From assembly GCF_963921235.1 (NCBI RefSeq), contig NC_086108.1:84756001-84820000 (forward strand): a DNA stretch of 64,000 nucleotides, given 5' to 3'. The first letter of the stretch is position 1. Each line of letters opens with the position of its first letter. Origin of the DNA: Mobula hypostoma (Eukaryota). The position numbers and the translations under genes are program-made. Of the stretch, positions 30,978 to 45,101 are shown one piece after another. The notes beneath the pieces were generated by a model. It saw nothing but the letters and a program-made list of their open reading frames with translations, had not been told where the DNA came from and made no database searches.

Positions 30978-31104
30978 AGGAAATCTGCAGATGCTGGAAT
31001 TTCAAGCAACACACATAAAAGTTGCTGGTGAACGCAGCAGGCCAGGCAGCATCTCTAGGAGGACGTACAGTCGACGTTTCGGGCCGAGACCCTTCGTCAG
31101 GACT
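30978..31104 (-). mobile_element. 127-bp Penelope pLTR-derived insertion
   Basis: 14-bp TSD CAAAAACATACATG (30964-30977, 31105-31118); matches the end of the Penelope copy at 46678-46811. Confidence 0.88.
31068..31104 (-). ncRNA. Minimal type-I hammerhead ribozyme, intact core
   Basis: AGUC CUGACGA A GGG UCUCGG CCC GAAA C GUC^GACUG; stem I AGUC/GACU. Confidence 0.75.
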
Positions 31105-31999
31105 CAAAAACATACATGTCCTCTACTGGTGCTGCAACTTGGATGGATGGAAATTGGTCTTCAGTTGCTCACCTATAGAAATGATTGGCCTAGACTAAGC
31201 TGTCATTTACCAATATTCAGCTGAAGATTTCAATTTCTGACATTCAGAAGTTTTCTCTTTGCAATTTCAAATAATTTTCTTATTAATTTCTTCCACTTCC
31301 ACCTCTTCCAGATCAATCTTTTATTTCTTTGCTAATCTCTTTGCCATTCTATTTCACTTTGTACTGCCAAAAATTTTGACATTTAATGTCTCCTTCATAG
31401 CTTGCATTCAGAGACATTAGTTTTTCTTCACCCTTTCCCCTTTCTCACATTCGATCTATAGTAAAACTCTTATTTTGTCACACATGCTGCCTAGCAGAGC
31501 TGAGCACTTCCAGTATTTTCAGCTTTCATTCAAACTTCCAGCAATTGCAGTGCTTTGCTCTTGCACTAATAAACTGTGCAGTTTCGGGTAAAGAAATAGT
31601 TTGCCTGACCATATGAATCAAATTATGACATTTTAAACTCAATTGCAGCTACACTATTAAACTAGTAATGCAATGTTCTTGCTCATTATGATGATCCAAA
31701 TATAGTTATAACTTGGGGATTACTTTGAAACTTCATTATTTGCATGAACAGCTAATCTTGAGATATAGAAGAAAATGAAGTTATTTGGGAATCCTTTTTT
31801 TTATCTGACAAAGGAACAGTGGAATTGAACATCAAGTTTTAGGGCTCTGGTTCATTTTGCAGCAAACACTGTGAAGGAAACCTGATCAATTTCTACATCT
31901 TGATTTGGAAAAGTTTCCAAAACTAAGGCAGTTAGCCAAGTTTTTTTTTAGGCATTCATGTTCAAACATTCTATTTCAATGCTGAATATTAACAATATA

Positions 32000-33464
32000 C
32001 AGGTGTCCCCCACTTTTCGAACGTTAGCTTTATGAAACCTCACTGTTACGAAAAAAATCATGCATGCAATAAAAGGCAGCGCGTGCCCCGAGAAGCCACT
32101 CTCCTCCGGATTTGTAACTGCAATCTCGCCGGCATTGCTTAAACATGTGCCTGTGAGCAGCCGTTTGCAAGATGAGTTCTATGGTATAGGAAAAGCCTGA
32201 AAGAGCTTGTAAGGGTATTACACTTAGCGTAAAACTAGATATAATTAAGCATTTCGATTGTGGTGAACGAAGTAAGGACAAAGTGAGTTTGGCTTGTGGA
32301 AGCTGATGAAGGTGATGTTGAAGAGGTTTTGGCATCCCATGACCAAGATCTGATAGATGAAGAGCTGATGCAATTGGAAGAGGAAAGGATAACAATCGAA
32401 ACCGAATGAGTAATGATAAAGTACGACTTTAATTTTGAAAGGGTACGTCGTTTTGGGGAAATTTGCAGGATGGTTTGAGTGCTTACAAAGAACTGTATGA
32501 TAGAAAAATGTGTGAGGCTCAGCAGTCAAGCAAGCCTTCCACATCAGCCACAGCAGACAACAAATCTCAACCTTCGACATCGAGGCAGGCAGTCATAGGA
32601 GAAGATGAGCTGCCTGCTCTAATGGAAACAGACGACGAGATGACACCCCAGTGTCCCACCACCCCAACGCCCAGGCCGCGGACAGATACCGATTCGCGGA
32701 GAATGCAGCAGTAGCTGGGAGACACACAGCACATCTTTAAGAAAAAATCCGAAATAAACATGCTAATTAATTAGGTGCCGCCCGACACGTAATTAATTAG
32801 CATGTTTATTTCGGCTTTTTTCTTAAAGATGTGCTGTGTGCCTCCCGGCTACCGCTGCATGCTTCGTGGATCGGTATTGGTTTGCTGCCCGGAGGGTGGG
32901 GCCCACTGCACCACCCAAAGTCCGACGACTCAGTCTAACACACCATCATCAGTGTGCTCCGCGCCTTCTTCCCAATTCCGGTAAGTGACTCTACACCGTA
33001 CATACATTATTTCTACTTTATATCGGCTGTGTATTTTTATGTGTTATTTGGTATGATTTGGCTGCTTCATAGCTTAAAGGTTATTGGAGAGCGCTTGCGC
33101 CGTGTTTTTGCCGACGGCACTTGCGTGAGATTTTCGCTACGGAGAACAGTTCAGGCAATGATTGTGGAAAAGTATTTCTACTTTATATAAGCTGTGTATT
33201 TATAAGCTGTAATTACCTAATTTCCCCCGGGATCAATAAAGTATAACTATAACTTATCATATCATTCCTGCTTTTAATATATGTTACTGTTATTTTAGGT
33301 TTTATGTGTTATTTGGCATGATTTGGTAGGTTATTTTTGGGTCTGCGAACGCTCACAAAATTTTCCCAAATAATTAAATGGTAATTGCTTCTTCGCTTTA
33401 TGACATTCCGGCTTACGAACCGTTTCATAGGAACGCCCTACCTTCGGATGGCGGGGCAAACCTG
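32000..33464 (+). mobile_element. Tigger-like element with central palindrome, copy 3
   Basis: TA-CAGGTGTCCCCC...GGGGCAAACCTG-TA; hairpin centre partly deleted; small LINE-tail insertion at about 33203-33253. Confidence 0.88.
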
Positions 33465-33619
33465 TACAATCTGATCATAGGTAATAATCTTGGAGCAAAA
33501 ATGTGTTTGGCAATGTTGAAAATAAATTTAGATGTTGTCATGGTTGTCTCCTAGAAACAAAGCTACATGTCACATTAATTCTCACAAAGCATTCACTGAT
33601 AAATTTGTATTGTCTTCAG

Positions 33620-43458: not shown

Positions 43459-43659
43459 CTGTAAGCAAAGACAAGGCTTACTAAAACAGTTTGAGGAGAT
43501 AAAACAAAACCTTTTACTGCAGTGGAAACCAAATGGACATTTTCTTCATCAACAGCATGACTACTGTAATTCACAGCAACTGACACATTTCTGATGCAGT
43601 AGTGCATTTTGTTTGTTCCCATGTTTCTTCCCCCTACTTTGAAAACAGTGACAGTGGGA

Positions 43660-43756
43660 TGCACACAAAATGCTAGAGGAACTCAGCAAGTCAGGCAGCA
43701 TCTATGGAGGGGAATAAACAATTGACCATTTCAGGCCGAGACCCTTCATGAGGACT
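43660..43756 (-). mobile_element. Penelope pLTR-derived short element with mutated hammerhead core
   Basis: AGUC CUCAUGA AGGGUCUCGGCCU GAAA UGGUC; the core G is changed to C. Confidence 0.7.
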
Positions 43757-45063
43757 TTACCTGGTGCTGTTGGTGGGCTATTGAGCAACGGCATCATTAA
43801 ATTCTGTCATCAACCCTGTCTAAAAAAAAACCTATATCTACAGGGTGGATATATCCACTTTTCAAAGCCTCTACACCTTTCCTGTGATGTGGTGCCTAGA
43901 ACTGCAGACAACACTCCAAATTTGGCATAACTAAATATTTATGCAGCTGCAACATGAGTTGCTGCCTTTTACACTCTGTACCCCATATGATGAAGGCAAG
44001 CATGCCATATGTTTCTTTACCACCATATTTATTGTGCTACTTTACAACATTTCTCACTTGTCTGGCTTAGACTCCATCTGCCACTCCTCTGCGAACATTT
44101 CCAACTGGTCTATATGTTGCCGATTCCTTTTTTTTTAAAAAACCTTCTTCACTTTGTGTTGTCTGTTGACTTTCTAACCACCAAATTTGTTTGCTAGTTA
44201 TCAGTATTAGGAGAAAACTTAAAAATTATTGGGCTGGAGCTTCTGATGATTGGCGAGTTGTCCAAATTTGCCCACCTGCAGTTAATTCTATTTCTTGCCA
44301 TTATGATGAGAGTCTAATTTTAAAGTGATAGGCAATCACTTTTCTGTATGTGGGGCAGAATGTGTGTTTGGCAAGAACTACAAAGAAATGAGTTTCATTC
44401 TAAGCAGCTGAGACAGTTAGCGCCTTTACCAAGGACTGGAGAGCGAGTGACATGCGCAGCAGTCCATGCTGAGGTTCACTCTGTGCTCTTTGGGCTGTTC
44501 CCAGGGACATATGATGAGACAAACATTAGTACGTGTTGGTGAAAGCTAGATGCTCATTGGTCACTTAGGACAAGGGGATATCTGCAAGAAAATGCTGCTG
44601 ATGGGGACATTCCAAGGAGCAGCAATAAGGTGCACTGAAATTCAGTGCCACTGCTTAGGTTCCCTGAGGAGGGACTACAGTGCTGGGTCCCCCTGCCAAT
44701 TGACACTGAGGGGCTGAGCTCTGTATAACAGCATGTCAAATGAAGGAGCAGTCAGGAGTGGTGCTGATGCATTGTAGGACAATGCATTACATTGAGATGA
44801 GAATGAGAGTAAATTTTCTTGATTGAATATATGATCAGTACAGTTTTGGGGGGGGAAATATGGCACAGTCCAGCCCCAAATGGCTTTGACAACTGATGAC
44901 ATCCTGCTCTGAGCTCATCAACAATTAAAACTGTTAATCAATATCATGAGACTAATCTGTGAGAGCTCCTACTCCTTTGACACAGTGCTTGAACTATTTT
45001 ATAACTGGACATGTAAAGTAGATGAGTAGAAAAATGGCCAGGCAGCATCTCTAGGAAGAGGTA

Positions 45064-45101
45064 CAGTCGACGTTTCAGGCCGAGACCCTTCGTCAGGACT
45101 A
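45064..45101 (-). ncRNA. Minimal hammerhead ribozyme, intact core
   Basis: UAGUC CUGACGA AGG GUCUCGG CCU GAAA C GUC^GACUG. Confidence 0.75.

Follow-up and report, generated by a model that had tools for sequence, protein, structure and literature searches.

The 64,000-nucleotide (nt) stretch of the Mobula hypostoma genome analyzed here (contig NC_086108.1, positions 84,756,001 to 84,820,000; hereafter, the window) carries part of PTPRF on its minus strand, together with four minimal hammerhead ribozyme motifs that all lie in the sense orientation of that gene. A first-pass annotation had proposed that these motifs constitute a dispersed self-cleavage system, seeded by transposable elements (TEs), within the host gene. 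Our analysis supports, with high confidence, a different reading, namely that the motifs are the 3' ends of four young insertions of a Neptune-type Penelope-like element (PLE) and likely ride as silent passengers in the PTPRF pre-mRNA.

PTPRF was assigned as the host gene since PTPRF-named proteins of Mobula, Pristis and Hypanus match the exon at 19009-19293 with 100% identity; the best match of this exon among solved structures is LAR/PTPRF. According to tblastn searches with a batoid PTPRF protein, PTPRF exons span ~275 kb of the minus strand, and the following ones frame the motifs.

48652-48777, minus strand: PTPRF exon upstream of the copy-4 intron (limits from tblastn).
43283-43458, minus strand: PTPRF exon (D1 phosphatase domain) immediately before the 21-kb intron (tblastn; splice sites).
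22131-22250, minus strand: PTPRF exon downstream of the 21-kb intron (tblastn; splice sites).

The 21-kb intron (22251-43282) has GT/AG ends and lies between two PTPRF exons. Copies 1 to 3 of the motif are inside it, consistent with the earlier placement of three of the four motifs there, and copy 4 is in the intron upstream of it. The family members found in the window are as follows.

31068-31104, minus strand: minimal hammerhead copy 1, C11.1 form, predicted cut 31073/31072 (sequence, folding).
36760-36796, minus strand: minimal hammerhead copy 2, U11.1, predicted cut 36765/36764, predicted to be hairpin-locked (folding).
39363-39400, minus strand: minimal hammerhead copy 3, U11.1, GAUU, predicted cut 39368/39367 (sequence, folding).
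45064-45101, minus strand: minimal hammerhead copy 4, U11.1, predicted cut 45069/45068, 38 nt predicted to be paired to 46678-46715 (sequence, folding).
36793-36830, plus strand: antisense partner of copy 2, core broken by G8A (motif scan).
46678-46715, plus strand: antisense partner of copy 4, ACGU palindrome broken by G16.2A (motif scan).
15603-15640, minus strand: old decayed motif copy in an older PLE fragment, 7 mismatches (motif scan).
25819-25856, plus strand: old decayed antisense motif copy, 10 mismatches (motif scan).
43720-43757, minus strand: old decayed motif copy, 9 mismatches (motif scan).

All four motifs on the minus strand (i.e., PTPRF sense) contain CUGACGA, GAAA, C-G, GUC and a 4-bp stem I, and the hammerhead core CUGANGA / GAAA / UH is present in type I order in copies 1 to 4; the sequence thus agrees with the first-pass annotation as to four intact-core motifs at these coordinates. 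It had also placed the cut of copy 1 correctly, and the palindrome ACGU (15.2-16.2) that it described in place of stem III was found in all four copies. Its motif formula, which ended in GACU, fits copies 1, 2 and 4 and fails for copy 3, in which the 3' strand of stem I reads GAUU, hence a G.U pair in that stem. Likewise, its tally of four was sound for the motifs named and missed five further family copies, three of them antisense. The G10.1-C11.1 pair with an unpaired nucleotide after A9 occurs in copy 1 only; copies 2 to 4 are U11.1 (a G.U pair, or A-U without the bulge). Positions follow the usual hammerhead numbering, and the roles of G8, G12 and C17 are those generally accepted for this ribozyme. 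Because a reversed-pattern control gave 0 matches genome-wide, the motif copies are homologues and not chance matches. The generic CUGANGA..GAAA pattern was weakly above shuffles (11 vs 6.1), so the evidence lies in sequence identity, not in the pattern. An Rfam scan gave 11 matches at E<=1, none of them to a hammerhead family, an outcome to be expected where stem III is missing. Its mir-3926 match was rejected as merely the inverted pair at 36756-36834.

Each of the four motifs was found at the 3' end of a separate PLE insertion with its own flanking direct repeat (target site duplication, TSD), the ribozyme being part of the pseudo-long terminal repeat (pLTR) of the element.

30978-31104, minus strand: insertion 1, 127-nt solo pLTR stub (ribozyme plus tail) starting at the first base of stem I; 14-bp TSD 30964-30977 / 31105-31118.
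36718-36927, no single strand: insertion 2, head-to-head inverted pair of pLTR stubs centered on the ribozyme 5' edge, hairpin; 15-bp TSD 36703-36717 / 36928-36942.
39302-39775, minus strand: insertion 3, 5'-truncated PLE with internal deletion, 3' untranslated region and tail (blastn); 11-bp TSD 39291-39301 / 39776-39786.
45037-46817, minus strand (46050-45037) and plus strand (46049-46817): insertion 4, inverted pair of 5'-truncated PLE copies (blastn, inverted repeats).

Insertion 3 holds a GIY-YIG fragment at 39515-39767 (weak Pfam GIY-YIG match, E = 0.063). In insertion 4, the arms are ~700 bp long and 94% alike, a GIY-YIG fragment lies upstream of the motif (Pfam GIY-YIG E = 1.8e-4, below cut-off), and the candidate TSD of 8 bp (45029-45036 / 46818-46825) is weaker than the others. 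Copies 2 and 4 are the arms of inverted pairs; no such arm adjoins copy 1 or copy 3. Contigs from sequencing runs of uncertain type, which were dominated by repeats and did not reach the flanks of insertion 1, showed no empty-site joint for it. PLEs are known to insert as partial tandems that make up pLTRs, as neighboring copies in inverse orientation, and with a tail (PMC8557442). The inverted PLE pairs are also predicted to form double-stranded RNA (dsRNA) in the PTPRF pre-mRNA, of ~700 bp at 45037-46817 and 80 bp at 36718-36927, and such dsRNAs would be likely ADAR substrates.

The source element was characterized by a search with the N-terminal part of the reverse transcriptase (RT), which gave 10,953 first-look candidates, 150 of which were scored; identity was 98-100%, and many had open frames near 1,043 codons. 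Twenty loci selected for long open reading frames (ORFs) served for counts of element architecture. The hammerhead motif was present on both sides of the RT-endonuclease (EN) ORF in 11 of these 20 loci, 90 nt before the frame and ~3,420 nt past the frame start (i.e., ~3.5 kb apart), such that full-length copies consist of a 1,043-codon RT plus GIY-YIG frame between two motifs. Pfam RVT_1 (E = 9e-6) and GIY-YIG (E = 5e-4) were matched in one frame, both below the curated cut-off, and YIDD, YIGE/KT and a CX4CxxC linker before the endonuclease were each present in 18/20 loci. A CX2-5CxxC linker zinc finger marks Neptune and is absent in Penelope/Poseidon (PMC8557442). By its linker and domain order the element would therefore be a Neptune-type PLE, with the reduced-linker Nematis as the alternative, and the scored open 1,043-codon frames together with thousands of candidate matches suggest a recently active family. 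Some full-length pLTR-ORF-pLTR copies have near-identical ribozymes at their ends (e.g., G000:C2:18155501-18165500). The earlier identification of the motifs as PLE pLTR minimal hammerheads that would need to dimerize is right, in line with the position of the motif around the RT-EN ORF and with PMC4209133.

Genome-wide, exact 30-mers of the motif numbered 40,228 in the U11.1 form and 6,362 in the C11.1 form, and U11.1 was present in 26/27 ORF-adjacent motifs among those listed. The C11.1 form is older and U11.1 a younger source lineage, because the G12A change on the C11.1 base reaches 1,457 copies vs 6,362. Post-insertion CpG decay as the origin of U11.1 was ruled out, given that the mirror change G12A is found in 1,457 copies vs 40,228. 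Since the U11.1 lineage is dominant and amplified, the canonical G10.1-C11.1 pair is dispensable for the spread of the family. The 46,590 exact 30-mers amount to one per 75 kb. If they were spread uniformly, at least 4 would fall on one strand of 64 kb with a probability of 1e-3, and ~109 of 108,614 window-strands would be expected to reach this number; local density is above the genome mean, with 16 exact copies in the 464 kb around the window. The four-copy cluster is thus not beyond chance genome-wide.

We compared the two strands of genes in a sample of 1.2 Mb around PTPRF and two paralogues (1.264 Mb scanned with the window), of which the 864 kb between mapped coding exons of three LAR-family genes were used for counting. 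An ungapped motif scan yielded 132 matches, and the 42 outside the coding spans were excluded. Copies of all ages were evenly split (46 sense and 44 antisense with the window, 40 and 41 outside it), as were intact copies (12 and 9 with the window, 8 and 9 outside it). Such counts bear on the host-used system, in which sense copies would join in cis by their ACGU palindromes, cleave the PTPRF intron as it is transcribed, tune splicing or output, and be retained for that reason. It is favored by the occurrence of four intact sense copies within 14 kb with none intact antisense in the window, by a motif spacing like that of the native pair, and by the existence of domesticated intronic hammerheads in amniotes (PMC6155905). 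Against it stand (i) the absence of an intronic sense bias of intact copies outside the window (8 vs 9, at low power); (ii) the intact copies in the rest of the PTPRF coding span beyond the window, of which 0 are sense and 3 antisense; (iii) the independent origin of the four young insertions; (iv) the neutral decay of the motif family; and (v) the predicted sequestration of copies 2 and 4 (both below). We consider this explanation extremely improbable, and the proposed TE-seeded self-cleavage system in PTPRF is not supported. Two of the checks that the first-pass annotation had suggested, on intronic strand bias and on core conservation, went against it.

The same counts also bear on a possible genetic load, whereby free sense copies would occasionally cut host pre-mRNA, mainly with the element protein, and be weakly selected against. 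Exact 30-mers outside the window lean against sense copies (5 sense vs 13 antisense, p = 0.10), the 10,953 first-look ORF candidates (150 scored) and open frames suggest recent activity, the anole element protein switches on cleavage (PMC11167929), and retrozymes are depleted from introns in Xenopus (bioRxiv 10.64898/2026.07.22.740005). Structurally intact copies, however, split 8 vs 9, and the intact share of young copies (<=5 mismatches) is equal across strands (8/19 vs 9/24, Fisher p = 1.0). We regard such a load as unlikely.

To assess conservation of the ribozyme core, essential and dispensable positions were compared in 70 young copies. Non-CpG mismatches numbered 12/630 in the core, 5/210 at dispensable positions and 14/700 in stems, and CpG mismatches 35/350 at essential and 21/210 at dispensable positions. 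Genome-wide single-change counts on the 40,228 base, two of which were obtained by subtraction from degenerate patterns, were 2,992 (C7T), 1,829 (G8A), 2,043 (loop C>T), 2,705 (loop G>A), 2,226 (C15.2T) and 2,518 (G16.2A). The totals per CpG were accordingly similar for the core C7-G8 (4,821), the loop (4,748) and the ACGU palindrome (4,744; chi-square p = 0.67). The palindrome needed for dimers decays as fast as the loop, and a core more conserved than the rest was not observed, essential and dispensable positions decaying equally. Dispersed motif copies decay neutrally at the level of the family, a statement that does not extend to single loci.

Folding was used to evaluate the proposed cis dimer. 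As bare 38-mers, the motifs gave P(stem I) of 0.56-0.95 and P(stem II) of 0.86-0.97, and were also predicted to pair G5-G8 with C15.2-C17, closing the core. With 30-150 nt of flanks, copy 2 was in a long hairpin (P[stem I] = 0.000), copies 3 and 4 lost stem I (P <= 0.002), and stem I was kept by copy 1 only (0.55-0.82). When the whole copy-4 unit was folded, all 38 nt were predicted to be paired with 46678-46715. The active dimer was predicted to lie 9.5-12.7 kcal/mol above the free monomers, and inactive cofolds were far more stable; antisense duplexes reached -81 to -398 kcal/mol, values from hand-chosen stretches that are used qualitatively. Copies 2 and 4 are thus predicted to be sequestered by their own antisense arms, and copies 1 and 3 would be the sole candidates for pairing in PTPRF, with predicted folding against the dimer in both. 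Published activities are low as well: PLE minimal hammerhead ribozyme (min-HHR) monomers are inactive and dimers of low activity (PMC4209133); the hammerhead of the anole PLE requires protein for cleavage, can be dispensed with in insertion and shows no RNA-seq ends at its site (PMC11167929); and of nine Xenopus dimer elements, 8/9 were without cleavage and 1/9 cleaved (bioRxiv 10.64898/2026.07.22.740005). It is also conceivable that the element protein gates intron cleavage genome-wide. At a density of one exact core every 75 kb, sense-strand cores would be present in most long genes of this ray, and free copies such as 1 and 3 would, once the protein is made, find each other over kilobases like the native pair and cleave host pre-mRNA; we hold this to be very unlikely.

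Several observations weigh against regarding the motifs as silent passengers. In the window, 4/4 young sense copies are intact and 0/2 young antisense ones, and the orientation test has low power (17-21 intact copies). Young copies were taken to be those with <=5 mismatches, and the scan did not pick up copies with indels. Moreover, among the six CpG changes the core-killing G8A has the lowest count (1,829 vs 2,992 for C7T), and killing changes average 2,191, neutral ones 2,580; the two least frequent changes both occur in a 5'-TCG context, which mutates slowest and may account for the low G8A count. The folding was nearest-neighbor, with neither tertiary nor Mg2+ terms nor a known-active control. 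Spacings of 2.6-8.3 kb resemble the native 3.5 kb (rough j of 3e-7 to 1.7e-6 M vs 1.1e-6 M), so pairing in cis is not prevented by distance alone; an adjacent inverted arm is also missing from copies 1 and 3. Finally, dimer cleavage by such variants has reportedly been described (Lunse et al. 2017).

The silent-passenger reading would involve the following steps. In the element's own RNA, the motif would act as a weak, probably protein-assisted dimer between the two pLTRs, as the literature suggests. Insertions that are 5'-truncated or inverted, like those in the window, carry it into introns, and the dispersed copies then decay neutrally, as seen at the family level. Of the intronic copies, 2 and 4 are predicted to be base-paired to the antisense arm beside each, copy 3 to misfold with its flanks, and copy 1 to form a hairpin that joins G5-G8 to C15.2-C17. 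With these predicted structures, cleavage ahead of splicing would be infrequent and selectively unimportant.

The 5' ends of short copies were mapped in 150 young copies found by their tail (samples of 62 and 88), of which 61 end at the cut site or <=60 nt upstream of it. More specifically, 33 of these 61 ends are at -36..-26 (the ribozyme 5' edge), 20 in the core, 4 at -3..+3 and 4 at -60..-37. The pile-up at the 5' edge (33/61) has p = 7e-11 vs uniform, with two inverted pairs counted twice, and the drop in 5' ends falls at an initiator-like TCAGT at -36, as judged by the general initiator consensus. Examples of 5'-edge ends in the window are 31104 and 36793-36796. No 5'-end hotspot was found at the cut site among the 150 young copies. 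The first sample had 0/62 ends there and the second 4/88 by automatic call, 1-2 of these being judged true; because of these ends in the second sample, our claim is limited to the lack of a hotspot. Complete depletion at the cut site was dropped as an interpretation (pooled, 4 vs 6.7 expected, p = 0.19). The pile-up fits templates that would start just before an uncut ribozyme, as in PMC11167929, in which anole PLE reverse transcription starts internally, at the tail; fold-back at a complementary DNA hairpin is an alternative cause. Short copies are possibly strong-stop-like products of the element RNA, and, more speculatively, if the 3' copy were cut, a terminal repeat of ~35 nt would remain that could serve a template jump. 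Among the publications searched, we found no description of a 5'-edge pile-up of PLE copies.

The motifs closely resemble the PLE min-HHRs of Cervera and De la Pena (2014, PMC4209133), which are massive in number and mostly single in metazoan genomes: both are type I without stem III, with a palindromic 15.2-16.2, a 4-5 bp stem I and, in copy 1, the extra nucleotide that follows A9. In both, too, most motifs are dispersed singly, as remains of truncated PLEs, while some form close pairs on opposite strands or tandems ~3 kb apart. They differ in copy number (~47,000 exact here vs ~4,000 in coelacanth and ~9,000 in Xenopus), in a dominant young U11.1 lineage vs the conserved C11.1, with a stem II of 4 bp here, and in the batoid host, which the accessible portions of PMC4209133 do not mention. 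With Neptune EN+ PLEs (Craig et al. 2021, PMC8557442) the element shares the RT, CX2-5CxxC linker and C-terminal GIY-YIG, as well as 5' truncation, partial-tandem pLTRs, adjacent inverted copies and a variable tail. The Anolis PLE (Frangieh et al. 2024, PMC11167929) likewise has its ribozyme where pLTR and ORF meet, and next to it the tail from which reverse transcription sets out; it belongs to the Poseidon clade, however, and its ORF starts inside stem II, whereas the frame here starts 90 nt after the motif start. The CPEB3 intronic ribozyme and the domesticated intronic hammerheads of amniotes such as RECK (PMC6155905) share the sense-strand intronic position; they are single-locus motifs conserved across species, in contrast to the young, TSD-flanked, neutrally decaying motifs without stem III seen here. 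Non-LTR retrozymes, whose survey includes one chondrichthyan, similarly carry type I hammerheads derived from PLE pLTRs, but as tandem units each with a ribozyme and not as four dispersed TSD-flanked insertions (bioRxiv 10.64898/2026.07.22.740005). In the main texts searched, we found no description of the batoid family, including 0 term matches in a manta genome preprint; the supplementary species lists of PMC4209133 may already include cartilaginous fish. What is new here is a batoid Neptune-type family of unusually high copy number within a known hammerhead class.

Other repeats in the window include one with three copies (6931-8238, 11583-13032 and 32132-33466) in two orientations, 88-93% alike, with an internal palindrome whose ~119-nt arms lie at 32662-32901; it is probably a non-autonomous DNA transposon. 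Remnants of long interspersed nuclear elements with long open frames lie at 143-1114 (plus strand), 3024-6831 (minus strand), 49441-50803 (plus strand) and 33532-36171 (plus strand); they are probably an L1/Tx1-like C-terminus, CR1-like elements with ORF1 and ORF2 parts, and a Rex/Babar-like copy.

For the biology of the family, the internal CpG controls show neutral decay of dispersed ribozyme copies. If host pre-mRNAs were nonetheless cut, tens of thousands of TE-seeded ribozymes would be affecting how most long genes are spliced. A vertebrate Neptune-type PLE with signs of recent activity would lend itself to biochemistry, and the 5'-edge pile-up bears on what PLE hammerheads are for, a question for which this young family with many open ORFs is a good test case.

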